From Nemertoderma westbladi (Eukaryota; Animalia; Xenacoelomorpha): 64,000 nucleotides of DNA. The DNA is taken from contig JAUCBJ010000179.1 in NCBI GenBank assembly GCA_032718475.1, forward strand, positions 1 to 64,000, written 5' to 3'. The notes under the pieces were generated by a model. It saw only the letters and a list, made by a program, of their open reading frames with translations, ran no database searches and was not told where the DNA came from. Position 1 is the first letter of the stretch. Each line of letters opens with the position of its first letter. A program made the translations under genes and the position numbers. Shown here piece after piece: positions 868-58,481 of the stretch.

Positions 868-873
868 AAATAA

Positions 874-885
874 GTAGGAAACAAT
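874..885 (+). other. Non-tRNA primer-binding site candidate of element 1 (GTAGGAAACAAT)
   Basis: No TGG after the LTR; exact reverse complement of LTR 410-421 (ATTGTTTCCTAC). Confidence 0.7.
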
Positions 886-914
886 TCGTCTTCCTAAGGG
901 GGGGCGGATTAACA

Positions 915-29133: not shown

Positions 29134-30790
29134 TATCTGAGTAGGCCTATTAGCCTAGTGCCTAGGCGCTAGGCCTACTTTACTTCGTACATTATGCTCT
29201 GCACTGCAGCGCAGCTGCCTAACTGTAGGATCAATAACTGATTAATATCCGTACTGCCGTACGAAAATGCATGGCTGTATGGATGGTGCCAACTGCAGAA
29301 CTGCTAAAATGTCCTCGAACCCAGAACCTATCAAATCTGCAAATACTGTCAGACTGTAGGCCTAGGCCTACTGCAGTACTGTCTAACATTTACAACATTA
29401 ATCTGTTAATTATATAGGAGGCCTAACATAATACAGTAATACTGTAGGGCCTAATGAATAGGCCTACCGGTGTTAGGGTTGGTTGACAATTTTACAGTTT
29501 TAGAGTGTTCGTTTCCCAATCAGGGTATTTTAACTCCACATAATAATTATCCGTATTGTCATGTCATCGTGTTTTTATATATTCATGAATTGGGTTACGC
29601 AGTTACTGTACATGAAATATTTAAGCTGTATGCCTACAGCTGTATAAGTAGGGTTAAGCTGTTAAGGCCTGACTAAAACTACTGAACTATAAACTAACCC
29701 TCATCAGAATAATAATACACATATTAATGGCTGTCAAGGAATACAATCTGCAATCAGAGGTTATTCCTCGAAAGTGAAAGATAGTAAGAATTTACATAAT
29801 GAGCTATGAAGTACCGGTATCAAAGTTCATATTATCCACCCTCGCCACACCATTAGGCTCCAATCTGACAACCTAACCAGACCTTGACTACTGCAGTACT
29901 GCTGTACTGAAAATAAATCTGCAGTAGTGCATAAAATATTTCAAATTTCCCACCATTTCTTGGCCTGCCAGATTTATTATTATTCTTAGTTGTTGATTGG
30001 AAGGCCATGCTGATTCTACTGATATTGTTAGTTAGAGAGCTAACGAGATCGTACGGCATCGTTTATATTGAATGTGGACAATAATGTTTGTTTATGTGAT
30101 GTGAATGTGGGTGAGCTACGAAAGTAAGCGAGCTTAGCATACATGTATCACTAACTCAATCGGTGTGTCTGTGGGACGAGCCACGAAGTAAGTGAGCCTT
30201 AGCGTAGTGGTACCATTAATTAATCAACCTGTGGGGCGAGAAAATCCGCAATGAAATCATAAATAATAACATAATATTATTATTATTATTTATTGCCATA
30301 CTTAAATACAATATTGTATATAAGGCAGTTTAGAGGCAAGCCTCTTTAACTGATAATAACTGACCTCTTAAGGAGGTCAGCTGGCACTCTATCCTAATAA
30401 GTAAGTACTAAATATAAATATAAAATGCATGCAGTAAATAATAAACCTATGAACGAAATGGTTACACAATATTTCCATGCAGAAGAGCAATATATTTATC
30501 TAGTTAATTAATTGTACGGTACTGTACTTATATTACAGGAAACTATTACATAATACATACAAAAAAAATATACACATGATTAATAATAAATATAATTAAG
30601 TAATTAATTGCCAGACATTATTTATTATTAAAAAATTTATTAAATTACAAAAATTCGTTTCACCGTAAATAATGTGCTCAAGCACCCAGCATTGATAGAA
30701 CCCGCGTCAATTTTATTTATCCCGTTCAAATCCTGAGAGGAAATGCTTTTTTAGAGAGCCTTTAAAAGTGGAATAGTTCGTTACTAGTTG

Positions 30791-30894
30791 TGGGGCGAGC
30801 CACGAAGTTGGCGGAGCCTTAGCGAATTGACACTGTTAGGGGGTGGGTCAATTTATGCAAATAGTTGTCGTCGTCGTCGTCGTCGTCGTTGTCG

Positions 30895-30926
<32 letters not shown>

Positions 30927-32058
30927 GTCGTTACGATTTTGACATGCTAATAACTTTGTCGGATTTAAAGCTGCCAAGTTGAAAATTTGTAGGTATCAAT
31001 ATGAGCAAAAGGTGAGATTTTTGAGAGACTTTCAGACACCATCAGTGCAATGGTCTCCCGCTAGAGGGCCACATGTCTAAACATTAAATGGCCACCCATT
31101 TCTTTGCTTTTAATCCGTTTAAGCTGAAACTTGGGAAGTATGTACTAGACCATTAGCTGTAAATTTCAAAAGAGGCTAATCTGTCTGCAGTTCTCCAGTC
31201 TGCCGCTAGAGGGCGAAATGTCCCGAATGTGAAATTATTCTTCCATTTAGTTGTTTATGATCTGATTACGCTGAAACTTGTCATATATGTACTAGATGAC
31301 ATCCTGAGTCTTTGTGTGGATTGTAATCGGTCCGAAGTTTTCCAGTCTGCCGGTAGAGGGCCACATGTCTAAACATTAAATGGCCACCCATTTCTTTGCT
31401 TTTAATCCGCTTAAGCTGAAACTTGGGAAGTATGTACTAGACCATTAGCTGTAAATTTCAAAGGAGGCTAATCTGTCTGCAGTTCTCCAGTCTGCCGCTA
31501 GAGGGCGAAATGTCCCGAATGTGAAATTATTCTTCCATTTAGTTGTTTATGATCTGATTACGCTGAAACTTGTCATATATGTACTAGAAGACATCCTAAG
31601 TCTTTGTGTGGACAGTAATCGGTCCGGAGTTTTCGAGTCTGCCGCTAGAGGGCGAAATGTAGGAAAGTGATAACCTTCGCGAATTCCTTGATCTTAATCT
31701 ATTTAAGCTGAATTTTGGAATATACAGTACCGGTATGTACTAGACCACATGCCTCGTCTTTGTGAGGAAGGTGATCGATCCGCAGTTCTTTAATATGCCG
31801 CTAGAGGGCTAAATGTATGAAAGTGAAAACCTTCCAACATTTCGTTATTTATGATCCGTCAATCGGAAACTTGGTAGATATGTAATAGACCATAGGCTGT
31901 GGCTTTGTAGGGAAACTAATCCTTCCTTCTTCAGTTACCCAGTCTCCCGCTAGAGGGTTAACGTTTTCCGGGAAAATCTTCTCCTATGTTTTTATAATCC
32001 TTTCGAGTTGATACTTAGCATTAACTCATTTCACGTGCTGCGCGAAGGCCCCACTTCG
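30791..32058 (+). mobile_element. TG-flanked non-autonomous element with (GTC)n microsatellite and seven ~147-bp internal repeats
   Basis: Family termini; near-identical to 32239-44663 after removing element 2; HINE/DINE-1-like layout. Confidence 0.85.
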
Positions 32059-32361
32059 TGTTTTATTGTGTGCGGTAAGTCATTCCATAATTTTATGAGT
32101 TGGGTAGTTAAGCTGTAGTGCCCAAACCGGTTGTTAGTCCTTGGTAGTTTAATATTAAGGGTGCGTCTGTTAAGTAAGTCATCCGTGGTTGTATCTGGTA
32201 GGTAAGGAAGATTTAGATGTTGGAATGGGATGGATATGTGGGGCGAGCCACGAAGTTGGCGGAGCCTTAGCGAATTGACACTGTTAGGGGGTGGGTCAAT
32301 TTATGCAAATAGTTGTCGTCGTCGTCGCGAGCCACGAAGTTGGCGGAGCCTTAGCGAATTG

Positions 32362-33647
32362 TGTACGCGCTTTTATAGACCTTCAGCAGTTTAACCTGCC
32401 GAAATTTATATGTCTTTATTGATAAACTGCCTTTTATAAGATGACAAGATTTAATACAAAAACAAACCAAAAACATTAGCCGAAGCCAGTCCATGCGCGT
32501 CCAAATGACCCGTTTATAACACCGGGAGACTGGATTCGTGGGCTTAAATTTATTTGCGGTCAAGCCTACTGTATTATTCGATTGATTACTAATATATAAT
32601 CTCTGACAAATATTATTCACTTTCGGGAAATATTAGCAGTTCCTTTTAGGACGTGGCGCTCTACCTATGTAAACAGAGTTATGACTGATACTACACACAA
32701 CGATATGGCTTAAATTTCAAGCATAGGGCGCATTCTTTAGGAATGCTTTATTATCAGATCCAATCACTTTACAATCACGCACGCTACCGGTAACGCACAA
32801 CACTGCTCACTGATATGCCGACAGTTACTGACTTTGATCAGGTATAAAGAGATATGCACTGGACTCAGGTAGTGTCTGTCAAACAACATTAGATTCACTA
32901 CAAACACAATAATAAAGTCGCAATTGTTGTACATAACCTTTCTCTCTAACCTGTAGTGTATCAAAGATATTGGGAAAATGTGGGTTGATTATTGATATTC
33001 TTCAACTAATAACATCCAATTATACTGATACAAAATTACAAACAGTAAAAGCAGTATGACGGTAGGTTAAGATACAATTAGATTGCAAGTGCAAATGAGT
33101 CGAATTGAATTGAATTGAGTCGGATCAAATTGGATCAAATGGAATTGATAATAGCTATGCTTTCTATAATTTAGCCTACTAATGTTCTTATAAAAAGGCA
33201 GAAACATTGCGTCATTCCAGCCGATCTTCAGGCAGTATGGAACGACATAAACACTGAGTTTGGGAGCTGCTGTAGGTATCTCTTCAAGGAAAACGCAAAT
33301 CACCCTGATTGGTTGTTAGACCAAAAACAAAGGAACCAGGAGTCCAATGAGAGCTCCCTCCACGTCATCATCCAGCTGGGAGATGTCGTAATCAGAATCC
33401 TTCCCTTGACATAGTGACAATGAAATGCCGCATTGCGGGTTGTGTACCCTGCTACGTCCGCATAAAGCACACATTCAGAAGAATCTATTTTATGTCCGTT
33501 AAAAACACTTATACAGCACCCCGAGGGCTAGGGGATCCAATTATATCTGTAAACGCTTTTACAGCAGGTTTCAGAGTATTTCAGCGTATGGGGGAAAAAC
33601 TGGATCGCGGGGCGAAGGACCAGTTGCATCCCACAGAAGCTTTTACA
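32362..33647 (-). repeat. 3' LTR of element 2
   Basis: Direct repeat of 42162-43447 at offset 9800. Confidence 0.96.
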
Positions 33648-34601
33648 CCGCTCCCAGAAAATGGGATTGAAGTCTATAAAATATACGAGATCACAGTTTC
33701 TAATATACATAAATACTCTAAACCGTTAGTCTTTCTTGCGCGGACGGCGTTTACGCAGTTTTTTAAAGCTGGCCAGAGTCCTTTTCTCTTTGGGGCGAAC
33801 CACTTTACAAGGAGGGCTATAACTCCTGGGTGAAAGGTGCAATATAATTGCATCAGAGGGTGCAGGCTTATAGTCGGGGTATCCGCCGTTTCGATATGCT
33901 TCTCCTCGAGCTGATTTTCCTCTGCTCGTCGGTGGATACATTCGTCCAAAAAATCTCGCGGAGAATAGAGTCGTCCAAGTTCGATATCTTCTTAGAGATT
34001 AGTTTAAGTTATCTGAACAAACGCAGGTTTCTTTCCTGATCTTTGTGGAATAGCGTCTAACTCGTTTCGGACAACGCTCTCCTCTACCTTGATGACGGGT
34101 GGTAGCGGGTTAAACGGGAACGATCCCGATTACACGGTTGAATGGCAACAACGGGTGTCCGTGCCTCAATCCGGCCAGGTAAGATAGGCGGATATTTAGG
34201 GAGCCATTAACCTGAGTGCCACCAACCAACGGCTCGGGCAACACTGGATCTCGGAACGGTAAGCACAGTTCATGAGGATCCGCGATACTATTAGGATCAA
34301 GAGTCCGAGGTCTAACTAAGGAAGGAGGAGGTCTGACCGAGCATTCAGGAACTCAGATCATAGGTCTACTCAAGGATCGCCCGAGCCGAGAAAGCGTGGG
34401 TGACACATCGAACAAGTTTCTCTCGAAACTCCCGCAAACACAGCGAGCAAACCGTGTTTAAAGCTTCGTCTCCGTTGACGTTTATGTCTTTCCGTTTGTT
34501 GGTTGGTCTTAGGCATTCATCGTAATAATACCAAGACACACGTCTTGTAGGGGAAACGCGAGTGATATTTATTTGGTGTTACAATGCTTCTCTCAAGAAT
34601 T

Positions 34602-36658: not shown

Positions 36659-39600
36659 TTACGTGATGGAGTCCCTAGATATTTGTCGAATTAGGGAAGT
36701 GGTCGTAGGAAGAGTATCTTGCCTTCCATGGTTTCCGGACAGTTTTCGGTCTCTTCCCGGTAAACCTAAACGACCAGCTGGGCGATTAGGCCGTCGTGAT
36801 ATTTCCTCCGCTCCCTTGGCCTGTCTAATCTCCGCCGCGGCAAGACGAGGAGGCCATTCTTCTTCTTCTTTACTTAGGGAGTCGGGTCCACCCAACCAGC
36901 CGGGAGTATCTATCCGTTCTTGAGGAGTTACTCCTCTGGAAGCGATGTCGGCTAGATTAATCGTCTCGGGTCGATGTCTCCATTGATCTACATTGGAGTT
37001 GATATCGTCGCTATCTGAGGAGTATGTTGTTCCCTCAGTGGCTTCGTCCACCTCACTGCTCTCCTCTTCCCAAGCTTTTACTTGAAGTATCCGGTCTTGT
37101 GGCAGTCTTTCTTCAAGGGTTCTGCGGGAAGGGCCAGTGAAGTACCAACCTACTCGAGTTCTTACCGCATAAGGTTGTAATGGCTGCGGTTGAGCAGGCC
37201 GTTTCTCTAACGTCTCGAGCGCCTCATGCGCGTTTTGGCCGATAAGGATTTGTACTCCAGGATAATCAGTTTGGAATCGAGGTATTCCCAAATGTTGGAT
37301 GTTCTCGTCCTCGTCCCAGTCATAAGGTTCTACTTGAGTAGTAGCGAAGTTCTTTATTGCCACCATTTTTACTGACTCTATACTTTGTTCCCCTAATTTA
37401 TCCTGTGGAGTGGACAATGCGCCGATATAATAATCTGCCATTAAGGTAGATTTCCAAACCTGCATAATTCCGGACATATTTAACTTAGTTCGGAATTTGG
37501 GTTGTCCAGCAAAAATATCCTCGGCTAACTCCTTGTCGATGAATGTTCCGGTGCTACCTGAGTCAAGGAGGGCGTTCACTATGTAACTTTTGTTGGGACC
37601 GTGAACTCTTACCTGGACTACCGGAAATTCTCGTATTCCTATGTTGGATGTTGGAGTTTTCCGAGATGGTTGCTTGTCCAAGGAGGTTGATGGAAACTCC
37701 GTGTCGTTATCCTTTTCGTACGTAAGTGCTCGATACACTGCGGTGTTTATTAGATAACAGGATTCGTTGGCATCAGAGAATTCGTCAGTATAGAATCCTT
37801 CCCACTCAGAACTTTGGTCAGTGTCGTTCACATCACTGAATTGGACATGTGATTTGGGCTCACTTACCTGACTCGGGTGGTTTCGTTCGAATTCTGTGTG
37901 CAATAAGCTATGATGTTTCGCGCCGCACTTAGCACACCTTGCGTTATAGTAACAGGTTCGCTGCTGGTGTCCGCGTCTGAGACAGTTAGAACACAACCGC
38001 TTATCCCACAGGACTCCACGTCTACCTGCCAGGGATTTCTTTAGGAATTCTGCACACACCCTCAAACGGTGGGGCCCGTCGCACAGCGCACATTTTGGTT
38101 TGATGTTACTCACTTTAACTTGGGCAATGTTATGCACTTTGGTTCTTTCTTCGGGCTTTCTTACCTGAATTCTTTTGGGAGACTGAGGAGGGGTCTTAGT
38201 GAGCTTGTCTCTCCTATCATTGGTTCGAGGCCGGTATTTACTTACGTCTCTCAGGGTTTTGTGGTCATCGTAAGATCTTGCTGTGTCTTTCCCGCTGTCC
38301 TCTTCATGGGAGGTCTGGCTTTCGCCGTCGTCAGTATAACATACGGGTATTATTCTTTTCCTAGAAACGGGTTTTTCACTTACCTGATTTTCCGATGTTT
38401 TTTCCCTGGATTGCTTTATTAGTTGTAGTTTGACCTCACGGTCTAGGAATGACATGAGATCCGCCATGGTGGGGCTCCGTCGTTGTTGCTCCATCATATA
38501 CAACACTTTCTTGTCCCAACGTGTACATACTCCCCCCTTTGGCAAAGTAGAGACAATGGCTCCGATAACCATGGAACTCTGATATTCATGGGACTTACCT
38601 AACCAATCCAATTGCCTACAGATTTCTTGAATCTCATCGGAAAACTCTATAATCTCGTTACTAAAGAACTTTCGGGGAGCTACCAGTTTTGCATACAAAT
38701 ACTTAGCGATGTTATCCTTATTACCATACCTGATGTTTAGGGTATCCCAAACTTGTCTTAATCCATCTGGATGTCCAATAAACTTTAACGCCATTAACTT
38801 GGGAGATCCTTCCAAACACTCGATGAGGTATCTAAGTTTCTCTCCGTTAGATAGCACAGAGTTCTGTATGTTATCTTTGTAATATTCATTAAAAGGTAAC
38901 CATTTCATCTCATCTCCATTGAATTTGACGATTTCTCCCTCTTTGACCGCTTGGCGGGCTTCTGTTCTAGCCATTTGACGCGTAAAGCTTTCTTGGGCCA
39001 TCGTGTTATTAAATATCGAATTATCGGTATATAAATTTCTCGAATTATTATCAGGTCTATAGGGAATATCATTACCAACAGGTTTATAATCTCCCTTAAT
39101 AGGGTTTACTATAGGAGTTTCTACTTCGCTAGCAGTATATACGCGTGTAGGCGACACACCTTGCGCATGATATACTTCAGACCTAACAGGTTGACACATG
39201 GTTACAGGGGGTGTTTCTACTTCGCTAGCAGTATATATGCGTGTAGGCGACACACCTTGCGCATGATATACTTCAGACCTAACAGGTTGACGCATGGTTA
39301 CAGGGGGTGTTGGTATACCCCTTTGTAAATTTACTAACTTATCGCATTCTGACGCGATACTCTGTTGCACCTCTTGCAATGCTAACCTACTTTCCCTTAC
39401 TGTGCCCTTGAACTGCTTAACAGTCTCTTCCAACTCCCGGACCTGCTGGGAGGAGCACAAACAGTGTTCCCTCAGCTGCTCGAGCAGGAGACCCATCTCC
39501 CGTCGCCCCTCAGCTACCCACTCGACCGCCGAAGCGGGAGTCGCCAACGTAGTGGCGGGCGAGCGAGAGACGACGGGCGATAAATTCTTGATATCATCTC

Positions 39601-40057
39601 GCTCGGCGTCCAGGATGGGTTCAGACTCGGGAACAGTCCTACTGGGCACAGGTATTTTAGTACTGTGCAAAGGGAATTTGGTAGTAGGTTTGGGAAGTAC
39701 AGGTGTCTCTATCACCGAAGGGGTGTTTTCGAGAACAGGCCTAATTATTTCCGGTTCATCTACCATAGTAGGGAGTCTGCTTACGGTAACATTTCGGTCT
39801 GTGGGTTCTGTACTACCTACGGCTGTGCTAGCTAGTTGTCTTCCAACAGCTGGAGGCAAATCAGGCAACTTCCGACGGGGAGACGTTCTGTTACGCCTAC
39901 TGAGACGAGATCTATTTCCTCCACCTTCGGGATCTTTTATATCACCTTCATCGGAGGAGGCAAATCCCTGTCTTCTGATTTGTCTCCTCAAGTCTGCTTC
40001 TGCCACTGCCTCTGCCGCTTTTCTTTCCGCTTCTGCTGTTGCCATTGCCTCTGCCAC
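36659..40057 (-). CDS. gag: BEL/Pao Gag-protease with a short residual Pol motif; no RT, RNase H core or integrase
   Basis: KFNGD...KLRYLIECLEG; three knuckles CALCDGPHRLRVC, CSNCLRRGHQQRTC, CAKCGAKHHSLLH; LLDSGS; TRVGW; then QWRHRPETINLADIASRG...WLGGP...EEWP. Confidence 0.93.
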   Translation of the reverse strand: MAEAMATAEAERKAAEAVAEADLRRQIRRQGFASSDEGDIKDPEGGGNRSRLSRRNRTSPRRKLPDLPPAVGRQLASTAVGSTEPTDRNVTVSRLPTMVDEPEIIRPVLENTPSVIETPVLPKPTTKFPLHSTKIPVPSRTVPESEPILDAERDDIKNLSPVVSRSPATTLATPASAVEWVAEGRREMGLLLEQLREHCLCSSQQVRELEETVKQFKGTVRESRLALQEVQQSIASECDKLVNLQRGIPTPPVTMRQPVRSEVYHAQGVSPTRIYTASEVETPPVTMCQPVRSEVYHAQGVSPTRVYTASEVETPIVNPIKGDYKPVGNDIPYRPDNNSRNLYTDNSIFNNTMAQESFTRQMARTEARQAVKEGEIVKFNGDEMKWLPFNEYYKDNIQNSVLSNGEKLRYLIECLEGSPKLMALKFIGHPDGLRQVWDTLNIRYGNKDNIAKYLYAKLVAPRKFFSNEIIEFSDEIQEICRQLDWLGKSHEYQSSMVIGAIVSTLPKGGVCTRWDKKVLYMMEQQRRSPTMADLMSFLDREVKLQLIKQSREKTSENQVSEKPVSRKRIIPVCYTDDGESQTSHEEDSGKDTARSYDDHKTLRDVSKYRPRTNDRRDKLTKTPPQSPKRIQVRKPEERTKVHNIAQVKVSNIKPKCALCDGPHRLRVCAEFLKKSLAGRRGVLWDKRLCSNCLRRGHQQRTCYYNARCAKCGAKHHSLLHTEFERNHPSQVSEPKSHVQFSDVNDTDQSSEWEGFYTDEFSDANESCYLINTAVYRALTYEKDNDTEFPSTSLDKQPSRKTPTSNIGIREFPVVQVRVHGPNKSYIVNALLDSGSTGTFIDKELAEDIFAGQPKFRTKLNMSGIMQVWKSTLMADYYIGALSTPQDKLGEQSIESVKMVAIKNFATTQVEPYDWDEDENIQHLGIPRFQTDYPGVQILIGQNAHEALETLEKRPAQPQPLQPYAVRTRVGWYFTGPSRRTLEERLPQDRILQVKAWEEESSEVDEATEGTTYSSDSDDINSNVDQWRHRPETINLADIASRGVTPQERIDTPGWLGGPDSLSKEEEEWPPRLAAAEIRQAKGAEEISRRPNRPAGRLGLPGRDRKLSGNHGRQDTLPTTTSLIRQISRDSIT

Positions 40058-41319
40058 CTTCCTTTCAAGACACTGTCCAAGTCTAATTTTGTTTGTACAG
40101 TTGAATGCCTACTGCTATATTACAGCTAAAGCAAGTCTAGTAATTCAGTAAGACTGTTGGCCTAGTACCGGCAATTAACTACAATATATTAGGATACCGG
40201 TATACACTTATAGTATATATAAGTATTGCGGGCTAGGTTTGTTACAGAGTACCGGTATATAATTTCAGTACAAATATATACAAATATATATTAAGCCTAT
40301 TATAGATACCGGTATATCAATTATTTAGGATAGTTGAATTTCTGAAATTATAAGGTTACTTAGTTACTTGAGTTTACTCTATTACCGTTATTCAAGCAGT
40401 AGTCCAACTGATATTGAGACCTAATTGTTGTATGATAGGCCTACTGGTTTATAAATCTTTTGAGTTGATTTATAATATATATATACCCTGATAAGGGGTT
40501 TGTTACAAGATTGAAATAGGTGTTACTATTTCTGGGAAATATCACTACACAGAAGCTGTGCGCTTTCAGTGAAGTGCTACTTAGTGGACACTAAAACGAA
40601 TAATTCTACTGGCCTAAGTTACTTATCTACTAATTACGTAATATATGGTTGAGATTACAATCTCTAATAAACACACAAAACGGTACGTACAGATTTTTAG
40701 GGCAATTTTACAGGGAAACTACTAACCAGTCTAACAAAGGGTTAGAACTTCTGGCTATTACAACGAACAGGATACTACGGTATTTGAAAATAATAAGTAG
40801 AAGTAAATACTGCGTTGTCTAGATAGGAAAGTACCACCGCCTGACGACCTACAGCCGTATCGCTATAGGTACAACGTTATGTATCTACGGAGTGTTCCTA
40901 CCTAGAAGTTAATTACCGCCGTCTACCAGAACGAGCGTGCCTATTAACCACTTTACAACACAATAATGCCTACACTAATTACTTTCGGAAAGCACTGTAC
41001 ACTAAACCCTAAATTAGGTACAGGTACTTGTAAAAACAGATAACCAGTAGTTAAATATACTTGAACAGTTAAAAGAACCACAGCATCTGCTGGAGTGACC
41101 GGGGCACTGAGTCACCAGTCTTTACCTACGCCAAGCAGCCCGTGTAGTACTGGGGTTAATTTAACTATAACGGTATGTATAACAAACACAATTACTGTAG
41201 GAATAAACTTGGGGACATGAATGTTGCGAGTAATCGCATAAACTCTGAATAATAAATATTACGCTACCCGTACAGAATACTCAAATAAAATACAAACCGG
41301 ATGCTGACCAACTACCATT

Positions 41320-41805
41320 AAGCCTAAATAAACCATAGGATGTGCAGATTCCGAAACTTGTTAGTGAGTATGCGTGCTAATAAGGTAGCGCGACTTATTC
41401 TTTATGGGGGTTGACCTTACAACTTACGAGTTGCCCCAACTTACTAACTGGCACCTATCAGACTCTCTACACACGCGGCAATCTCTTCAGACCCAACAAC
41501 AGCTAGGCAACAATCCAGCCTACAAAATATCTAAATAATACTATTACGGTATCTGAACGGACTATACAGACAGTACAGTATAAACGCTGACGGACTACTA
41601 TCAAGCCTAAATAACCACAGTATATGCAGATTCCGAAACTTGTTAGTGAGTATGCGTGCTAATAAGGTAGCGCGGCTTATTCTTTATAGGGGTTGACCTT
41701 ACAACTTACGAGTTGCCCCAACTTACTAACTGGCACCTATCAGACTCTCTACACACGCTGTAATCTTCAAGCCTAACAACAGTCAGACAACAGTCCAGCC
41801 TACAA
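41320..41805. repeat. Diverged ~200-bp direct repeat in the element 2 leader (offset about 283)
   Basis: GCAGATTCCGAAACTTGTTAGTGAGTATGCGTGC...CAGACTCTCTACACACG present twice. Confidence 0.85.
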
Positions 41806-41987
41806 TGACCTGAACAGTCTGAGCAGACTTACACGTCTTCAGCTCAATATTAACTTACTAGGAAATAAAACTGACAGAAATAAACCTAAGTAAAATCCCA
41901 ATAAAAACCAGGCGTCCCCGATTTAGTATCAAGACCTACCGGTATACAATAATCAAAATCGAATAATACTAATGTACTTGCACAGCA

Positions 41988-42107
41988 GTACCGGTTATGA
42001 CAGTTGGGCCTACGGACCTACGGTAGTAGTACCGGTTATGACAGTTGGGCCTACTGACCTACGGTAGTAGTACCGGTTATGACAGTTGGGCCTACTGACC
42101 TACTGGA
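41988..42107. repeat. Three ~40-bp tandem units in the element 2 leader
   Basis: GTACCGGTTATGACAGTTGGGCCTAC(G/T)GACCTAC repeated three times. Confidence 0.88.
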
Positions 42108-42150
42108 GTGCCGGTATTTTCAATCTTATTGCTTACCGCAAATAAGATCG

Positions 42151-42161
42151 ATAGCTATTAT
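42151..42161 (-). other. Non-tRNA primer-binding site candidate of element 2 (ATAATAGCTAT on minus)
   Basis: Abuts the 5' LTR; no TGG; exact complement of LTR 42958-42948 (ATAGCTATTAT on minus). Confidence 0.72.
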
Positions 42162-43447
42162 TGTACGCGCTTTTATAGACCTTCAGCAGTTTAACCTGCC
42201 GAAATTTATATGTCTTTATTGATAAACTGCCTTTTATAAGATGACAAGATTTAATACAAAAACAAACCAAAAACATTAGCCGAAGCCAGTCCATGCGCGT
42301 CCAAATGACCCGTTTATAACACCGGGAGACTGGATTCGTGGGCTTAAATTTATTTGCGGTCAAGCCTACTGTATTATTCGATTGATTACTAATATATAAT
42401 CTCTGACAAATATTATTCACTTTCGGGAAATATTAGCAGTTCCTTTTAGGACGTGGCGCTCTACCTATGTAAACAGAGTTATGACTGATACTACACACAA
42501 CGATATGGCTTAAATTTCAAGCATAGGGCGCATTCTTTAGGAATGCTTTATTATCAGATCCAATCACTTTACAATCACGCACGCTACCGGTAACGCACAA
42601 CACTGCTCACTGATATGCCGACAGTTACTGACTTTGATCAGGTATAAAGAGATATGCACTGGACTCAGGTAGTGTCTGTCAAACAACATTAGATTCACTA
42701 CAAACACAATAATAAAGTCGCAATTGTTGTACATAACCTTTCTCTCTAACCTGTAGTGTATCAAAGATATTGGGAAAATGTGGGTTGATTATTGATATTC
42801 TTCAACTAATAACATCCAATTATACTGATACAAAATTACAAACAGTAAAAGCAGTATGACGGTAGGTTAAGATACAATTAGATTGCAAGTGCAAATGAGT
42901 CGAATTGAATTGAATTGAGTCGGATCAAATTGGATCAAATGGAATTGATAATAGCTATGCTTTCTATAATTTAGCCTACTAATGTTCTTATAAAAAGGCA
43001 GAAACATTGCGTCATTCCAGCCGATCTTCAGGCAGTATGGAACGACATAAACACTGAGTTTGGGAGCTGCTGTAGGTATCTCTTCAAGGAAAACGCAAAT
43101 CACCCTGATTGGTTGTTAGACCAAAAACAAAGGAACCAGGAGTCCAATGAGAGCTCCCTCCACGTCATCATCCAGCTGGGAGATGTCGTAATCAGAATCC
43201 TTCCCTTGACATAGTGACAATGAAATGCCGCATTGCGGGTTGTGTACCCTGCTACGTCCGCATAAAGCACACATTCAGAAGAATCTATTTTATGTCCGTT
43301 AAAAACACTTATACAGCACCCCGAGGGCTAGGGGATCCAATTATATCTGTAAACGCTTTTACAGCAGGTTTCAGAGTATTTCAGCGTATGGGGGAAAAAC
43401 TGGATCGCGGGGCGAAGGACCAGTTGCATCCCACAGAAGCTTTTACA
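42162..43447 (-). repeat. 5' LTR of element 2
   Basis: Upstream of gag on the minus strand; direct repeat of 32362-33647. Confidence 0.96.
42948..42992 (-). promoter_or_regulatory. Predicted LTR core promoter: TATAAGA (42992-42986), putative start at 42958
   Basis: TATA begins 34 bp upstream of CA+1T; start site inferred from spacing only. Confidence 0.5.
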
Positions 43448-46400
43448 AATTGACACTGTTAGGGGGTGGGTCAATTTATGCAAATAGTTGTCGTCGTCGT
43501 CGTCGTCGTCGTTGTCGTCGTCGTCGTTGTCGTCGTTACGATTTTGACATGCTAATAACTTTGTCGGATTTAAAGCTGCCAAGTTGAAAATTTGTAGGTA
43601 TCAATATGAGCAAAAGTTGAGATTTTTGAGAGACTTTCAGACACCATCAGTGCAATGGTCTCCCGCTAGAGGGCCACATGTCTAAACATTAAATGGCCAC
43701 CCATTTCTTTGCTTTTAATCCGTTTAAGCTGAAACTTGGGAAGTATGTACTAGACCATTAGCTGTAAATTTCAAAGGAGGCTAATCTGTCTGCAGTTCTC
43801 CAGTCTGCCGCTAGAGGGCGAAATGTCCCGAATGTGAAATTATTCTTCCATTTAGTTGTTTATGATCTGATTACGCTGAAACTTGTCATATATGTACTAG
43901 ATGACATCCTGAGTCTTTGTGTGGATTGTAATCGGTCCGAAGTTTTCCAGTCTCCCGCTAGAGGGCCACATGTCTAAACATTAAATGGCCACCCATTTCT
44001 TTGCTTTTAATCCGTTTAAGCTGAAACTTGGGAAGTATGTACTAGACCATTAGCTGTAAATTTCAAAGGAGGCTAATCTGTCTGCAGTTCTCCAGTCTGC
44101 CGCTAGAGGGCGAAATGTCCCGAATGTGAAATTATTCTTCCATTTAGTTGTTTATGATCTGATTACGCTGAAACTTGTCATATATGTACTAGAAGACATC
44201 CTAAGTCTTTGTGTGGACAGTAATCGGTCCGGAGTTTTCGAGTCTGCCGCTAGAGGGCGAAATGTAGGAAAGTGATAACCTTTGCGAATTCCTTGATCTT
44301 AATCTATTTAAGCTGAATTTTGGAATATACAGTACCGGTATGTACTAGACCACATGCCTCGTCTTTGTGAGGAAGGTGATCGATCCGTAGTTCTTTAATA
44401 TGCCGCTAGAGGGCTAAATGTATGAAAGTGAAAACCTTCCAACATTTCGTTATTTATGATCCGTCAATCGGAAACTTGGTAGATATGTAATAGACCATAG
44501 GATGTGGCTTTGTAGGGAAACTAATCCTTCCTTCTTCAGTTACCCAGTCTCCCGCTAGAGGGTTAACGTTTTCCGGGAAAATCTTCTCCTATGTTTTTAT
44601 AATCCTTTCGAGTTGATACTTAGCATTAACTCATTTCACGTGCTGCGCGAAGGCCCCACTTCGTGTTTGTTATGTACTTGGCAAAGAATAGTAACCCGAA
44701 ATACTCCCGGTATGCAGAGAGTATTGGTATTCTTGCTCTTGTTCGTAATTCAGTTCCAGTGTAGTCCTTGATTCTTGCATTGTACACGGATCGTAAGCCG
44801 TAATTTTGTATTTTTTCGAGTTTGTATAACATTTCTTTGTGGCCGTGGACGTTATGTAAGGATAGCATAAGATAGCAACAATACTGATGATACGGCAGTA
44901 CAAGTGATTTATAGAGATTTTGTTTCGTTTTTAGAGGTAGTTGACCCTTAATTTTCCTAAGGCATGATATTCCGAGAGACATTTTTTGGATGATGCGATT
45001 AATATGAGGTTTCCATTCGAGCTTGTTATCGAATTAATAGCAGTTAATTAGTTAAATTAAAATGAATTAAGTTGGTTAGGGTAAAAACAGCATTTTCAAC
45101 ATGGCTTAATGGAAATTAATTATTTGATAGTAGGATATAAATAATTATACTTAAAAATTATACAGCTGTAATCCCCATACTCCATTCCATTATAGTATTA
45201 ATTAGTTCAAGTGATTTGCTTTAAGAAATGTGTATTTAATGGATCTAAACGTAAGTTATCAAAATGCATCTCGTCACTCTATACATCCAAGCATACTTGC
45301 TATTGCCTATTACTGTAGTTGGAAACCAGTCCAATCATCTCGCCACTACTTGGCAACGGGTAATTACATCTATAGGGCCGAGGCAGGCGCTACAAGTGTA
45401 CTTTCATTAATCCTCTGTGGTCCTTTGGGTTGGGGTGGTGTAGATTGAGAGGGCGGTTGAAGCAAGGGGGGAACTTTCCTCTCTTCTTTGATTTATTCTT
45501 ATCGGCGGTTTGGTTAAACTTCTTAATCATTTATTTAAATTTATTAAATACCGATTTTGGGATAGAATTGCTCAATTTTAATCTGTACCTGATAACTGAG
45601 CCTCGTGCTACGCGAAGGCCCCACGAACGTGTCCTTGAGTGTGTATTGTGTATAAATTATAGCCTTATAATGATGAATTACCAATTGAGCTTTCTGGCTA
45701 TTACAGAACAAGAACTTTAGACTTTAATTTTTAATTTATGAAAATTTAATGTCTAACATCTTAGGGGCCCAAGTCATCCCCAGCGCGGTTAGTCCAAATG
45801 TCAAGACGCTACACATATCAAAGGCGTCCGGAGCCATCTACGTTTTTTTTGGAGGGGGTGGGAGCGAACACCTAAGCAACAAAAGAACACATGTACTACA
45901 TAAGGTGCCCCCCCCCCCCCCCCCACCCCTTGGGAGTCTCCTCCAATATGGATTAAAATGGTTTTGTTAGTATACTGTATGCATTGAAATTATACATTTA
46001 TTAATATGAATGGGAGAATCTTTTAGGCTCGTTAAGCCAAGGAATGCCTGTTCACCACCATGGGTGATCTTCCACAGTAAACCCTTCCACTCTGTTTCCC
46101 AAGTTGCCTTGGTTCCCATTTATCAATATATATATTTAGTTAGTTCTAATGTTGTTTTTCATGGACAAATTTAAATTTCCCCCAATTTTTCAAATTTTTT
46201 TCTCAATAAAGACGTAGCATCTTTATAAATTCTACTCCTGCGTCATTTTTAAATAAATTCGACTGGTGTTGACCTTTCGTTAAACTACAGTAAAAAAGGT
46301 TTATCCGCCATATTTTTACGGACGTTTATTTCCATTTACGTGGGTCAGTCAAGCTCGATAAAATTAAATGGCGCTTCTTCTTGAGTATTTTAGAATTACT

Positions 46401-46657: not shown

Positions 46658-49600
46658 AAAACAACTTGAGTTCCATTTGGTGCTAGATGGTTCCTTCCGA
46701 ATTACCAGATCGTGCTCAATAATTGTGACAAACTTGCACGGGTAAAGGAAATGAAACAACTTGAGTTCCAATTGCTGCTAAATGGTTCCCTCCGAGTTAC
46801 CAGATCGTGCTAAATAATGGTGACAAACTTACACGGGTAAAGGAAATGAAACAACTTGAGTTCCAATTGCTGCTAAATGGTCACCTCCGAGTTACCAGAA
46901 CGTGCTCAATAATGGTGACTAACTTACACGGGTAAAGGAAATGAAACAACTTGAATTCCAATTGCTGCTAAATGGTCACCTCCGAGTTACCAGAACATGC
47001 TCAAAAATAGAGACAAACTTACACGGGTAAAGGAAATGAAACAACTTGAGTTCCAATTGCTGCTAAATGGTCACCTCCGAGTTACCAGATCGTGCTCAAT
47101 AATGGAGACAAAATTACACGGGTAAAGGAAATGAAACAACTTGATTTCCAATTGCTACTAAATGGTCACCTCCGAGTTACCAGATCGTGCTCAATAATGG
47201 TGACAAACTTACACGGGTAAAGGAAATGAAACAACTTGAGTTCCAATTGCTGCTAAATGGTCACCTCCGAGATACCAGATCGTGCTCAATAATGGTGATA
47301 AACTTACACGGGTAAATGAAATGAAACAACTTGAGTTCCAATTGCTGCTAAATGGTCACCTCCGAGTTACCAGAACGTGCTCAAAAATAGAGACAAACTT
47401 ACACGGGTAAAGGAAATGAAACAACTTGAGTTCCAATTGCTGCTAAATGCTTCCCTCCGTGTTACCAGATCGTGCTCAATAATGGTGACAAACTTACACG
47501 GGTAAAGGAAATGAAACAACTTGTGTTCCAATTACTGCTAAATGGTCCCCTTCGAGTTACCAGATCGTATAATGGTGACAAACTTACACGGGTGAAGGAA
47601 ATGAAACAACTTGTGTTCCAATTACTGCTAAATGGTTCCCTCCGAGTTACCAGATCGTGCTCAATAATGATGACAAACTTACACGGGTAAAGGAAATGAA
47701 ACAACTTGAGTTCCAATTGCTGCTAAATGGTCACCTCCGAGTTACCAGATCGTGCTCAATAATGGTGACAAACTTACACGGGTAAAGGAAATGAAACAAC
47801 TTGAGTTCCAATTGCTGCTAAATGGTTCCCTCCGAGTTACCAGATCCTGCTCAATAATGGTAACAAACTTACACGGGTAAAGGAAATGAAACAACTTGAG
47901 TTACAATTGCTGCTAAATGGACACCTCCGAGTTACCAGAACGTGCTCAATAATGGTTACAAACTTACACGGGTAAAGGAAATGAAACAACTTGAGTTACA
48001 ATTGCTGCTAAATGGTCACCTCCGAGTTACCAGAACGTGCTCAATAATGGTGACAAAATTACACGGGTAAAGGAAATGAAACAACTTGAGTTCCAATTGC
48101 TGCTAAATGGTCACCTCCGAGTTAACAGATCGTGCTCAATAATGGTGACAAACTTACACGGGTAAAGGAAATGAAACAACTTGAGTTCCAATTGCTGCTA
48201 AATGGTCACCTCCGAGTTACCAGATCGTGCTCAATAATGGTGACAAACGTACACGGGTAAAGGAAATGAAACAACTTGAGTTCCAATTGCTGCTAAATGG
48301 TTCCCTCCGAGTTACCAGATCGTGCTCAATAATGGTGACAAACTTACACGGGTAAAGGAAATTAAACAACTTGAGTTCCAATTGCTGCTAAATTGTCACC
48401 TCCGAGTTACCAGATCGTGCTCAACAATGGTGACAAACTTACACGGGTAAAGGAAATGAAACAACTTGAGTTCCAATTGCTGCTAAATGGTCACCTCCGA
48501 GTTACCAGATCGTGCTCAATAATGGTGACAAACTTACACGGGTAAAGGAAATGAAACAACTTGAGTTCCAATTGCTGATAAATGGTTCCCTCCGAGTTAC
48601 CAGATCGTGCTCAATAATGGTGACAAACTTACACGGGTAAAGGAAATGAAACAACTTGAGTTCCAATTGCTGCTAAATGGTTCCCTCCGAGTTACCAGAT
48701 CGTGCTCAATAATGGTGATAAACTTACACGGGTAAAGGAAATGAAACAACTTGAGTTCCAATTGCTGCTAAATGGTCACCTCCGAGTTACCAGATCGTGC
48801 TCAATAATGATGACAAACGTACACGGGTAAAGGAAATGAAACAACTTGAGTTCCAATGGCTGCTAAATGGTTCCCTCCGAGTTGCCAGATCGTGCTAAAT
48901 AATGGTGACAAACTTACACGGGAAAAGGAAATTAAACAACTTGAGTTCCAATTGCTGCTAAATTGTCACCTCCGAGTTACCAGATCGTGCTCAATAATGG
49001 TGACAAATTTACACGGGTAAAGGAAATGAAACAACTTGATTTCCAATTGCTGCTAAATGGTTCGTTCCGAGTTACCAGAACGTGCCCAAAAATAGAGACA
49101 AACTTACACGGGTAAAGGAAATGAAACAACTTGAGTTCCAGTTGCTGCTAAATGGTTCCCTCCAAGTTACCAGATCGTGCTCAATAATGGTGACAAACTT
49201 ACACGGGTAAAGGAAATGAAACAAGTTGAGTTCCAATTGCTGCTAAATGGTTCCCTCCGAGTTACCAGATCGTGCTCAATAATGGTGACAAACTTACACG
49301 GGTAAAGGAAATGAAACAACTTAAGTTACAATTGCTGCTAAATGGTCACCTCCGAGTTACCAGAACGTGCTCAATAATGGTGACTAACTTACACGGGTAA
49401 AGGAAATGAAACAACTTGAATTCCAATTGCTGCTAAATGGTCACCTCCGAGTTACCAGAACATGCTCAAAAATAGAGACAAACTTACACGGGTAAAGGAA
49501 ATGAAACAACTTGAGTTCCAATTGCTGCTAAATGGTCACCTCCGAGTTACCAGATCGTGCTCAATAATGGAGACAAAATTACACGGGTAAAGGAAATGAA

Positions 49601-52600
49601 ACAACTTGATTTCCAATTGCTGCTAAATGGTCACCTCCGAGTTACCAGATCCTGCTCAATAATGGTAACAAACTTACACGGGTAAAGGAAATGAAACAAC
49701 TTGAGTTCCAATTGCTGCTAAATGGTCACCTCCGAGTTACCAGATCGTGCTCAATAATGGTGACAAACGTACACGGGTAAAGGAAATGAAACAACTTGAG
49801 TTCCAATGGCTGCTAAATGGTTCCCTCCGAGTTGCCAGATCGTGCTCAATAATGGTGACAAACTTACACGGGAAAAGGAAATAAACAACTTGAGTTCCAA
49901 TTGCTGCTAAATTGTCACCTCCGAGTTACCAGATCGTGCTCAATAATGGTGACAAATTTACACGGGTAAAGGAAATGAAACAACTTGATTTCCAATTGCT
50001 GCTAAATGGTTCGTTCCGAGTTACCAGAACGTGCCCAAAAATAGAGACAAACTTACACGGGTAAAGGAAATGAAACAACTTGAGTTCCAGTTGCTGCTAA
50101 ATGGTTCCCTACAAGTTACCAGATCGTGCTCAATAATGGTGACAAACTTACACGGGTAAAGGAAATGAAACAAGTTGAGTTCCAATTGCTGCTAAATGGT
50201 TCCCTCCGAGTTACCAGATCGTGCTCAATAATGGTGACAAACTTACACGGGTAAATGAAATGAAACAACTTGAGTTACAATTGCTGCTAAATGGTCACCT
50301 CCGAGTTACCAGAACGTGCTCAATAATGGTGACTAACTTACACGGGTAAAGGAAATGAAACAACTTGAATTCCAATTGCTGCTAAATGGTCACCTCCGAG
50401 TTACCAGAACATGCTCAAAAATAGAGACAAACTTACACGGGTAAAGGAAATGAAACAACTTGAGTTCCAATTGCTGCTAAATGGTCACCTCCGAGTTACC
50501 AGATCGTGCTCAATAATGGAGACAAAATTACACGGGTAAAGGAAATGAAACAACTTGATTTCCAATTGCTGCTAAATGGTCACCTCCGAGTTACCAGATC
50601 GTGCTCAATAATGGTGACAAACTTACACGGGTAAAGGAAATGAAACAACTTGAGTTCCAATTGCTGCTAAATGGTCACCTCCGAGATACCAGATCGTGCT
50701 CAATAATGGTGATAAACTTACACGGGTAAATGAAATGAAACAACTTGAGTTCCAATTGCTGCTAAATGGTCACCTCCGAGTTACCAGAACGTGCTCAAAA
50801 ATAGAGACAAACTTACACGGGTAAAGGAAATGAAACAACTTGAGTTCCAATTGCTGCTAAATGCTTCCCTCCGAGTTACCAGATCGTGCTCAATAATGGT
50901 GACAAACTTACACGGGTAAAGGAAATGAAACAACTTGTGTTCCAATTACTGCTAAATGGTCCCCTTCGAGTTACCAGATCGTATAATGGTGACAAACTTA
51001 CACGGGTGAAGGAAATGAAACAACTTGTGTTCCAATTACTGCTAAATGGTTCCCTCCGAGTTACCAGATCGTGCTCAATAATGATGACAAACTTACACGG
51101 GTAAAGGAAATGAAACAACTTGTGTTCCAATTACTGCTAAATGGTCCCCTTCGAGTTACCAGATCGTATAATGGTGACAAACTTACACGGGTGAAGGAAA
51201 TGAATCAACTTGTGTTCCAATTACTGCTAAATGGTTCCCTCCGAGTTACCAGATCGTGCTCAATAATGATGACAAACTTACACGGGTAAAGGAAATGAAA
51301 CAACTTGAGTTCCAATTGCTGCTAAATGGTCACCTCCGAGTTACCAGATCGTGCTCAATAATGGTGACAAACTTACACGGGTAAAGGAAATGAAACAACT
51401 TGAGTTCCAATTGCTGCTAAATGGTTCCCTCCGAGTTACCAGATCCTGCTCAATAATGGTAACAAACTTACACGGGTAAAGGAAATGAAACAACTTGAGT
51501 TACAATTGCTGCTAAATGGACACCTCCGAGTTACCAGAACGTGCTCAATAATGGTTACAAACTTACACGGGTAAAGGAAATGAAACAACTTGAGTTACAA
51601 TTGCTGCTAAATGGTCACCTCCGAGTTACCAGAACGTGCTCAATAATGGTGACAAAATTACACGGGTAAAGGAAATGAAACAACTTGAGTTCCAATTGCT
51701 GCTAAATGGTCACCTCCGAGTTACCAGATCGTGCTCAATAATGGTGACAAACTTACACGGGTAAAGGAAATGAAACAACTTGAGTTCCAATTGCTGCTAA
51801 ATGGTCACCTCCGAGTTACCAGATCGTGCTCAATAATGGTGACAAACGTACACGGGTAAAGGAAATGAAACAACTTGAGTTCCAATTGCTGCTAAATGGT
51901 TCCCTCCGAGTTACCAGATCGTGCTCAATAATGGTGACAAACTTACACGGGTAAAGGAAATTAAACAACTTGAGTTCCAATTGCTGCTAAATTGTCACCT
52001 CCGAGTTACCAGATCGTGCTCAACAATGGTGACAAACTTACACGGGTAAAGGAAATGAAACAACTTGAGTTCCAATTGCTGCTAAATGGTCACCTCCGAG
52101 TTACCAGATCGTGCTCAATAATGGTGACAAACTTACACGGGTAAAGGAAATGAAACAACTTGAGTTCCAATTGCTGATAAATGGTTCCCTCCGAGTTACC
52201 AGATCGTGCTCAATAATGGTGACAAACTTACACGGGTAAAGGAAATGAAACAACTTGAGTTCCAATTGCTGCTAAATGGTTCCCTCCGAGTTACCAGATC
52301 GTGCTCAATAATGGTGATAAACTTACACGGGTAAAGGAAATGAAACAACTTGAGTTCCAATTGCTGCTAAATGGTCACCTCCGAGTTACCAGATCGTGCT
52401 CAATAATGGTGACAAACGTACACGGGTAAAGGAAATGAAACAACTTGAGTTCCAATGGCTGCTAAATGGTTCCCTCCGAGTTGCCAGATCGTGCTCAATA
52501 ATGGTGACAAACTTACACGGGAAAAGGAAATTAAACAACTTGAGTTCCAATTACTGCTAAATTGTCACCTCCGAGTTACCAGATCGTGCTCAATAATGGT

Positions 52601-55600
52601 GACAAATTTACACGGGTAAAGGAAATGAAACAACTTGATTTCCAATTGCTGCTAAATGGTTCGTTCCGAGTTACCAGAACGTGCCCAAAAATAGAGACAA
52701 ACTTACACGGGTAAAGGAAATGAAACAACTTGAGTTCCAGTTGCTGCTAAATGGTTCCCTCCAAGTTACCAGATCGTGCTCAATAATGGTGACAAACTTA
52801 CACGGGTAAAGGAAATGAAACAAGTTGAGTTCCAATTGCTGCTAAATGGTTCCCTCCGAGTTACCAGATCGTGCTCAATAATGGTGACAAACTTACACGG
52901 GTAAAGGAAATGAAACAACTTGAGTTACAATTGCTGCTAAATGGTCACCTCCGAGTTACCAGAACGTGCTCAATAATGGTGACTAACTTACACGGGTAAA
53001 GGAAATGAAACAACTTGAATTCCAATTGCTGCTAAATGGTCACCTCCGAGTTACCAGAACATGCTCAAAAATAGAGACAAACTTACACGGGTAAAGGAAA
53101 TGAAACAACTTGTGTTCCAATTACTGCTAAATGGTCCCCTTCGAGTTACCAGATCGTATAATGGTGACAAACTTACACGGGTGAAGGAAATGAAACAACT
53201 TGTGTTCCAATTACTGCTAAATGGTTCCCTCCGAGTTACCAGATCGTGCTCAATAATGATGACAAACTTACACGGGTAAAGGAAATGAAACAACTTGAGT
53301 TCCAATTGCTGCTAAATGGTCACCTCCGAGTTACCAGATCGTGCTCAATAATGGTGACAAACTTACACGGGTAAAGGAAATGAAACAACTTGAGTTCCAA
53401 TTGCTGCTAAATGGTTCCCTCCGAGTTGCCAGATCCTGCTCAATAATGGTAACAAACTTACACGGGTAAAGGAAATGAAACAACTTGAGTTCCAATTGCT
53501 GCTAAATGGTCACCTCCGAGTTACCAGATCGTGCTCAATAATGGTGACAAACGTACACGGGTAAAGGAAATGAAACAACTTGAGTTCCAATGGCTGCTAA
53601 ATGGTTCCCTCCGAGTTGCCAGATCGTGCTCAATAATGGTGACAAACTTACACGGGAAAAGGAAATTAAACAACTTGAGTTCCAATTGCTGCTAAATTGT
53701 CACCTCCGAGTTACCAGATCGTGCTCAATAATGGTGACAAATTTACACGGGTAAAGGAAATGAAACAACTTGATTTCCAATTGCTGCTAAATGGTTCGTT
53801 CCGAGTTACCAGAACGTGCCCAAAAATAGAGACAAACTTACACGGGTAAAGGAAATGAAACAACTTGAGTTCCAGTTGCTGCTAAATGGTTCCCTCCAAG
53901 TTACCAGATCGTGCTCAATAATGGTGACAAACTTACACGGGTAAAGGAAATGAAACAAGTTGAGTTCCAATTGCTGCTAAATGGTTCCCTCCGAGTTACC
54001 AGATCGTGCTCAATAATGGTGACAAACTTACACGGGTAAAGGAAATGAAACAACTTGAGTTACAATTGCTGCTAAATGGTCACCTCCGAGTTACCAGAAC
54101 GTGCTCAATAATGGTGACTAACTTACACGGGTAAAGGAAATGAAACAACTTGAATTCCAATTGCTGCTAAATGGTCACCTCCGAGTTACCAGAACATGCT
54201 CAAAAATAGAGACAAACTTACACGGGTAAAGGAAATGAAACAACTTGAGTTCCAATTGCTGCTAAATGGTCACCTCCGAGTTACCAGATCGTGCTCAATA
54301 ATGGAGACAAAATTACACGGGTAAAGGAAATGAAACAACTTGATTTCCAATTGCTGCTAAATGGTCACCTCCGAGTTACCAGATCGTGCTCAATAATGGT
54401 GACAAACTTACACGGGTAAAGGAAATGAAACAACTTGAGTTCCAATTGCTGCTAAATGGTCACCTCCGAGATACCAGATCGTGCTCAATAATGGTGATAA
54501 ACTTACACGGGTAAATGAAATGAAACAACTTGAGTTCCAATTGCTGCTAAATGGTCACCTCCGAGTTACCAGAACGTGCTCAAAAATAGAGACAAACTTA
54601 CACGGGTAAAGGAAATGAAACAACTTGAGTTCCAATTGCTGCTAAATGCTTCCCTCCGAGTTACCAGATCGTGCTCAATAATGGTGACAAACTTACACGG
54701 GTAAAGGAAATGAAACAACTTGTGTTCCAATTACTGCTAAATGGTCCCCTTCGAGTTACCAGATCGTATAATGGTGACAAACTTACACGGGTGAAGGAAA
54801 TGAAACAACTTGTGTTCCAATTACTGCTAAATGGTTCCCTCCGAGTTACCAGATCGTGCTCAATAATGATGACAAACTTACACGGGTAAAGGAAATGAAA
54901 CAACTTGAGTTCCAATTGCTGCTAAATGGTCACCTCCGAGTTACCAGATCGTGCTCAATAATGGTGACAAACTTACACGGGTAAAGGAAATGAAACAACT
55001 TGAGTTCCAATTGCTGCTAAATGGTTCCCTCCGAGTTACCAGATCCTGCTCAATAATGGTAACAAACTTACACGGGTAAAGGAAGTGAAACAACTTGAGT
55101 TACAATTGCTGCTAAATGGACACCTCCGAGTTACCAGAACGTGCTCAATAATGGTTACAAACTTACACGGGTAAAGGAAATGAAACAACTTGAGTTACAA
55201 TTGCTGCTAAATGGTCACCTCCGAGTTACCAGAACGTGCTCAATAATGGTGACAAAATTACACGGGTAAAGGAAATGAAACAACTTGAGTTCCAATTGCT
55301 GCTAAATGGTCACCTCCGAGTTACCAGATCGTGCTCAATAATGGTGACAAACTTACACGGGTAAAGGAAATGAAACAACTTGAGTTCCAATTGCTGATAA
55401 ATGGTTCCCTCCGAGTTACCAGATCGTGCTCAATAATGGTGACAAACTTACACGGGTAAAGGAAATGAAACAACTTGAGTTCCAATTGCTGCTAAATGGT
55501 TCCCTCCGAGTTACCAGATCGTGCTCAATAATGGTGATAAACTTACACGGGTAAAGGAAATGAAACAACTTGAGTTCCAATTGCTGCTAAATGGTCACCT

Positions 55601-57945: not shown

Positions 57946-58481
57946 TGGTAATGTGTTTCACTACTAGAATAAGTTTGATTGAGATCTCTGTCTTAAACGG
58001 GTAAGTTTTATCGGGAATATGAATTGTCTCCGCCAGGAATTCTCTTTTGCATACTCACTCAGTCAGAGTTGCATTGAGTTTATACAACAAGTTTATATGG
58101 AAACGGATTATGAAACATCTGGTCGGATGCTTTGCTGCACCTCGTAACTGCGTGGAACAAAATTTTCGAACTACCTGGCATCTCTTACATAATTAATACC
58201 CACAGGTACATCGTTGAATATCTAAACACCTTCCAGCATATCCCTTTGTGATTCTGTGTTGGATATTCGCGACTATGAAAAATAGTAATAATAATAATAA
58301 TACTTACGATGGACTAATTTTTGGACATACATTTCTAATAATTATAGTTTTAGGACTAAAAACTAACTAATTAGCTTACAGTACATACTCAGCACAACCT
58401 TTTACATTACAAATATATATTTTAAAAAAATCCTGACGATGTAAAGTTATTATAAAGTAACAGTTTCAACTACGTGAATCC

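Follow-up and report, generated by a model that had tools for sequence, protein, structure and literature searches.

How does an LTR retrotransposon start reverse transcription if the sequence next to its 5′ LTR lacks the TGG of a site for a tRNA 3′ end? This question is raised by a stretch of 64,000 nucleotides from Nemertoderma westbladi (contig JAUCBJ010000179.1, here called the window), which harbors two such elements, element 1 on the plus strand and element 2 on the minus strand. The 64-kb window contains no tRNA gene. Its other features are two satellite arrays (46659-57947, 95 bp x 119, and 60301-64000, 88 bp x 42), two minus-strand host exons identified by Pfam, one for a mitochondrial ribosomal protein mL44-like (28195-29154; no homologue of this protein at E 1e-20) and one with an F5/8 type C domain (22473-22985), and, in two copies that are 86% alike, pieces of a non-LTR retrotransposon (RT, DUF6451; 10635-11672 and 17414-18364).

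The limits of the element 2 LTRs are firm. The 5′ LTR (42162-43447, minus strand; 1286 bp, TG...CA), whose minus-strand end is ...GCGTACA at 42162, is 100% identical to the 3′ LTR (32362-33647, minus strand), the target-site duplication CAATT is present on both flanks (43448-43452, other copy 32361-32357, minus strand), and the polypurine tract GGGAGCGG (33648-33655, minus strand) precedes the 3′ LTR. As the two LTRs are identical, the insertion must be recent. Element 2 lies in a dispersed repeat (30825-32063 and 43448-44668) with internal 145/292-bp repeats, and a second copy of this repeat, 97.8% identical and located 300 bp past the 3′ end of the element, has an empty target site. The sole long ORF (36659-40108, minus strand; 1149 aa from stop to stop), analysed by Pfam and protein comparisons, encodes a Gag domain (DUF1759 by Pfam) and Cys-His motifs, a protease motif found by protein comparison, and a 50-aa remnant of the RNase H end that is 43-49% identical to BEL/Pao loci over about 50 aa. 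This Gag-protease type, together with the TG...CA LTRs, the duplication and the polypurine tract, assigns element 2 to BEL/Pao. Searches with the Pol of element 1 and 120 related proteins revealed neither RT nor integrase in the ORF, and the small ORFs in the 3′ part of the element gave no Pfam family at E 0.1; lacking RT and integrase, element 2 is therefore non-autonomous. Its 2-kb leader contains a 41-bp repeat (2.9 copies, 41987-42103) and a 280-bp duplication (41244-41805).

On the minus strand the 11 nt abutting the 5′ LTR, the candidate primer-binding site (PBS) ATAATAGCTAT (42151-42161), are exactly complementary to a candidate self-primer within the LTR, ATAGCTATTAT (42948-42958, minus strand; LTR position 490-500). 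Pairing halts precisely at the LTR edge, the next pair being a mismatch, and the PBS has no TGG, the 3′-end signature of tRNA sites. The self-primer begins at a C|A initiator-like step, and the first T of the TATA-like motif TATAAGA (42986-42992, minus strand; a candidate by sequence) is located 34 nt before the segment. The exact complementarity, the missing TGG and the spacing to TATAAGA, all described in an earlier note on this DNA, were thus confirmed. The window contains the 11-mer three times, in each of the two LTRs and, as PBS, on the opposite strand, as compared to 0.04 occurrences expected by chance. Dinucleotide-shuffled LTRs yielded a match of at least 11 nt at offset 0 in 7 of 5000 cases and at offsets 0-10 in 21 of 5000; as the shuffles retain the real PBS, the effect of its 8-nt palindrome is already included in these values. 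The estimate of the note, a chance of about 1e-3 per element, was thus right. Among the internal positions of element 2, 12 of 8474 reach 11 nt (about 1 in 700).

Contigs matching element 2 were present in four public runs, two of which had no match on element 1. In run X3 a contig crosses the LTR-PBS junction of element 2 with zero differences and a word depth of 8226, as compared to 37 for the contig crossing the junction of element 1, which suggests that the element 2 family is far more abundant than that of element 1, although word depth is not a copy number. A contig with a second organism label shows at least five differences within 15 nt downstream of the element 2 segment, with none listed within the segment itself. 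In a contig of run X1 54 nt starting two bases past the candidate primer (42891-42946) are swapped for 14 other letters while the primer side is kept, marking a subfamily whose common block stops at the primer. Within the window, two decayed LTR pieces on the minus strand (11940-12429 and 16969-17402), 84% alike, are related to the U5 part of the element 2 LTR; the first retains the LTR end, and the primer segment is missing from both.

Element 1 is a second BEL/Pao element according to its LTRs, purine tract and domains, its target-site duplication being out of view at the window edge. The 5′ LTR (1-867, plus strand), the start of which lies beyond the window, is 99% identical to the 3′ LTR (9707-10590, plus strand; 884 bp), which is preceded by a purine tract (9699-9706). 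Its full gag-pol (858-8288, plus strand), which is broken at 5208-5210 by an in-frame stop, encodes the Pfam domains DUF1759, zinc knuckle, RT, Pao peptidase/RNase H (PF05380), integrase (rve) and DUF5641. A candidate PBS of 12 nt without TGG (874-885, plus strand) is located 6 nt from the LTR end, and its 12-nt complement, the candidate self-primer (410-421, plus strand), again starts at a C|A step, 31 nt past the TATA-like motif CATAAAA (379-385, plus strand; likewise a candidate by sequence). The duplex amounts to -14.8 kcal/mol, and a match of this kind at offsets 0-10 was obtained in 3 of 5000 shuffles. An LTR end at 873, which would place the PBS directly adjacent, was rejected, as contigs of other copies depart from the sequence after 867 and 871. 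The resulting gap of 6 nt exceeds that of every relative described below (0-4 nt).

Comparison of the two elements shows that their LTR families give zero BLASTN hits to each other, in line with the lack of visible similarity noticed earlier, and that their Gag-protease regions are 22% identical. With LTRs that cannot be aligned and Gag-protease regions this distant, the elements constitute two independent cases and not the natural covariation proposed in the note. The likeness to Tf1 in length and position likewise holds for element 2 (11 nt, adjacent to the LTR), but not for element 1 (12 nt, 6 nt from the LTR end). In both elements the pairing segment starts at C|A, 31-34 nt past a TATA-like motif; such a motif 29-35 nt upstream is found at 4% of LTR positions (value for element 2), and in combination with a pyrimidine-purine step at 0.7% and 1.1% of LTR positions. 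We also searched the window elements for a primer made by removal of an intron and rejected this possibility, the best spliced match being 7 nt in element 2, with none in element 1.

Folding calculations for element 2 depended on the length of RNA considered. The short, AU-rich PBS:primer duplex amounts to -10.6 kcal/mol, and the palindrome allows self-dimers of the two strands of -7.5 and -7.9 kcal/mol. In pseudoknot-free folds the helix has a probability of 0.94-0.96 if the leader is limited to 40 nt or less and of 0.0 if 260 nt of it are included, where the model favours other stems. Two U5 segments are also complementary to the leader. The first (42350-42360, minus strand) matches leader positions 42145-42135 perfectly over 11 nt and might form a U5-leader stem of 15 base pairs interrupted by a single bulge (-20.2 kcal/mol as duplex), which is, however, absent from the long-RNA fold (P 0.001); the second (42371-42383, minus strand) matches leader positions 41969-41957 perfectly over 13 nt, and this pairing has a probability of 0.9 in a 1057-nt fold. 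Element 1 has no U5-leader complementarity of at least 11 nt near its PBS.

A protein search yielded 1200 relatives, the best 120 of which are 35-42% identical; named hosts among these 120 are corals, anemones, fish, echinoderms, crustaceans, a priapulid and a mollusc. With the query and 22 of these relatives aligned, we fetched 79 loci from metagenomes (from the best 80 of 475 confirmed) and a further 19 (L080-L098) from host contigs within bacterial bins. The bacterial genome bins of this species-level collection thus hold animal BEL/Pao elements, i.e. host contamination. Two scans of viral contigs revealed no relative. Repeats flank pol on both sides in 20 of the 79 metagenome loci, and in 6 of these 20 the point at which the two copies diverge fixes the 3′ end of the LTR, the others hitting contig ends or non-LTR ends. 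In the second set the LTR end was fixed in 5 of the 19 loci, with that of L098 assigned by its likeness to L010.

We scored contiguous matches as well as matches across GT-AG introns at offsets 0-6. In the first set all six loci reach 11-15 nt, five of them spliced and one contiguous, with nulls of 0-2 of 600 for internal positions and 0-1 of 200 for shuffled sequences. In the second set 4 of 5 score 11-12 nt, three of them across a joint and one contiguously, against a null of 0-2 of 600, and only this set, L080-L098, is a fresh test, as the splice statistic was devised after the pattern of L013 and L055 had been seen by eye. Of the 11 relatives with a fixed end, which represent about nine families, L010/L098 and L081/L083 being sisters, 10 thus carry a perfect self-complement that is 11-15 nt long and starts 0-4 nt from the end of the LTR. 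Eight of the ten have it only across a GT-AG joint within the LTR and two have it contiguously; in the one miss, L093, 10 of 11 positions are paired at the joint, as judged by eye. TGG follows the LTR in none of the 11. In both window elements the self-complement is beyond what shuffled controls give, and it recurs in their relatives.

A blind scan without known ends gave at least 11 nt in 19 of 53 loci as compared to 2 of 53 reversed and 1 of 53 complemented controls. Near-duplicates are counted among the 19, as is L011, probably a chance hit, and the required part of the LTR is missing from many of the 53 loci. A scan of the metagenome loci for contiguous matches only was largely noise and missed the spliced cases.

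The spacing to the promoter, which the note had regarded as preserved, holds for the two window elements only. None of the four contiguous relatives (L055, L042, L046, L090) has a clear TATA at about -30, as judged by eye, and the clearest TATA-like motif of the relatives, also by eye, precedes the pairing segment by about 120-250 nt, in most cases with an intron in between, so that their primer would be internal. In the spliced relatives L081 (LTR 720-735), L083, L010 and L093 an AATAAA is located within about 0-25 nt after the pairing segment, and the repeated region remaining past a primer cut would be very short.

Genuine covariation was observed in one pair of relatives, L081 and L083, whose LTRs are 85-89% identical and can be aligned. 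An exon end CAC facing a PBS with GTG in one corresponds, in register, to an exon end TAA facing TTA in the other, and this difference is three compensatory changes. Two further loci bear on splicing. In L069 both exon ends of its sister L015 are joined, the intron being precisely absent, and L055 combines an acceptor-type 5′ LTR with a contiguous 3′ LTR. With the introns being predicted, these are the traces in DNA that passage through spliced RNA would be expected to leave.

Taken together, the feature is real, and it is likely best read as tRNA-independent self-priming, Tf1-like in principle, in a part of BEL/Pao. We assign a probability of roughly three in four to the reading that the RNA of the element itself primes minus-strand synthesis, a reading in which the pairing and its register come from the sequence, and Tf1 is the model for where transcription starts, for the cut and the part of RNase H in it, and for the helper. 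The transcript would start in the 5′ LTR, possibly at 42958, making the segment its first 11 nt as in Tf1, and the segment would fold onto the PBS. A cut just 3′ of the segment (after 42948), by RNase H if the analogy to Tf1 holds, would create a free 3′-OH from which RT would extend, copying U5. Copying of the primer during plus-strand synthesis would then rewrite the PBS, which would explain both the pure Watson-Crick matches and the joint change of the two sides. Element 2 presumably borrows the enzymes of a complete relative. In many relatives the segment would form only after removal of the predicted LTR intron, roughly 100-200 nt inside the RNA, and a longer spliced leader would there serve as primer through its 3′ end; the two window elements may be intron-free forms of this arrangement or 5′-end forms like Tf1.

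Alternatively, the helix might be a structural switch serving packaging, dimerisation, translation or PBS shielding, with another host RNA or protein priming synthesis. Priming itself is deduced from the pairing, and the additional 11- and 13-nt U5-leader complementarities indicate that this region of element 2 is rich in long-range pairing. We nevertheless regard a switch as unlikely, as the pairing stops within 0-6 nt of the LTR edge, the very site where the 3′ end of a primer is required, as the cores are perfect and contain no G-U pairs, and as the PBS differs among families, each tracking its own LTR, so that no single host RNA fits all of them.

The primer might also have the same sequence and act in trans, coming from the 3′ LTR, from a short transcript limited to the LTR, or from the partner genome that shares the particle. 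Cis and trans pairing look alike in sequence, and short LTR-only RNAs are plausible given the AATAAA about 0-25 nt after the segment in L081, L083, L010 and L093; in element 2, however, the first AATAAA (LTR position 896) comes about 400 nt after the segment. The 8-nt palindrome of the element 2 segment would suit intermolecular pairing, and the long-RNA fold no longer contains the cis helix, but Tf1 uses the 5′ end of its own RNA, according to PMC7175516, and we consider a primer in trans quite improbable. A chance match in AT-rich sequence, aided by the palindrome and concealing a degenerate or half-tRNA PBS, is conceivable insofar as 11 nt are attained at roughly one in 700 of the internal positions of element 2, a genome scan covers many elements and the window offers no host tRNAs for comparison, but this explanation is largely refuted, and very improbable, in view of 2 of 2 window elements, 10 of 11 relatives, the compensatory changes and the precise intron loss.

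Self-priming by the element's own RNA has its model in Tf1, whose RNA pairs with the PBS through its first 11 bases and is cut by RNase H between bases 11 and 12 (PMC7175516). Tf1-like self-priming has been proposed for Tj1 (PMC4600332) and predicted for Tcn1 and the copia TAR lineage (PMC6317226). Tf1/Tf2 of Schizosaccharomyces pombe, Tj1, and the Tf1/sushi and Tcn1 groups (PMC7175516, PMC4600332) resemble our elements in having no tRNA PBS and a short LTR segment complementary to the PBS, which in Tf1 is 11 nt long as in element 2. They are Ty3/gypsy elements, whereas the window elements and the relatives listed here are BEL/Pao by their domains. For Tf1, the primer, its first 11 nt, and the RNase H cut were demonstrated experimentally, whereas start and cut are predicted here. 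The offsets of 0-6 nt, the internal position of the segment across a predicted splice joint in many relatives, and the lack of an own RT or RNase H in element 2 also differ from Tf1. Neither window element has the RT and integrase of a Ty3/gypsy chromovirus that define Tf1/sushi; they would work like Tf1 but are not members of Tf1/sushi. The TAR lineage (Houba, Osr-1) is similar in that self-priming was predicted from sequence alone outside Tf1/sushi, and different in that it belongs to plant Ty1/copia and that the accessible part of PMC6317226 mentions no role of an intron.

With Belpaoviridae (Semotivirus) the elements share the Gag DUF1759, the zinc knuckle, the order protease-RT-RNase H-integrase, DUF5641, LTRs, the purine tract and an animal host. 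The ICTV describes this family as tRNA-primed, with a PBS of 18 nt that pairs with the 3′ end of tRNA-Arg or tRNA-Gly (PMC8742986), a site that is missing from the elements studied here, and describes its replication as poorly understood (PMC8742986). As the family is defined by Pol phylogeny, membership by protein stands despite the missing tRNA PBS. The PBS is not discussed in the main text of the main BEL/Pao surveys (PMC3118150, PMC554778, PMC6238403) and is mentioned only generically in PMC8220671, and the accessible parts of PMC3601003 and PMC6934838 mention self-priming for other groups only. In this literature we found no report of self-priming or of a splice-made primer in BEL/Pao; subscription papers, Repbase/GyDB and supplements were largely outside its scope, so that an older note on a single element may exist. 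The splice-dependent form seen in the relatives is without precedent in the literature covered.

The idea of a self-priming BEL/Pao clade put forward by the note thus fares differently in its parts. The BEL/Pao type, the absence of a tRNA-type PBS and the recurrence of the self-complement in relatives stand, and priming is the likely interpretation of them, but the term clade is not supported, since the trait is scattered over a quickly built tree (84 RT-RNase H rows), which omitted the near-duplicates L004, L012, L014, L027, L036 and L039 and loci with fewer than 400 aligned residues, element 1 is a long branch of unsure placement, with best relatives that are 35-42% identical, and element 2 has no RT. 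Eight loci (L009, L013, L015, L017, L020, L021, L055 and L093) that belong to one well-supported branch have PBS offset 0, a PBS starting with GT and a purine tract that, where visible, ends with GGAGCCA. Loci with a GGGGCCGG-type tract mostly have spacers of 2-4 nt.

In a wider reading, a broad, mostly aquatic branch of BEL/Pao would have dropped tRNA priming; in most of its members the spliceosome of the host would build the primer out of two joined LTR exons, elements 1 and 2 would be intron-free and independently Tf1-like with a primer at the 5′ end, and element 2 would be non-autonomous, its primer being used by helper enzymes. The odds for and against this wider scenario appear even to us. 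A case of self-priming in the third LTR superfamily would make it an option that evolved repeatedly. A splice-made primer would couple the start of reverse transcription to RNA processing by the host and could explain why an intron is retained inside an LTR. Moreover, self-priming would account for the failure of tRNA-based annotation to detect a PBS in these elements, and it would presumably put them beyond the reach of silencing by tRNA 3′ fragments.
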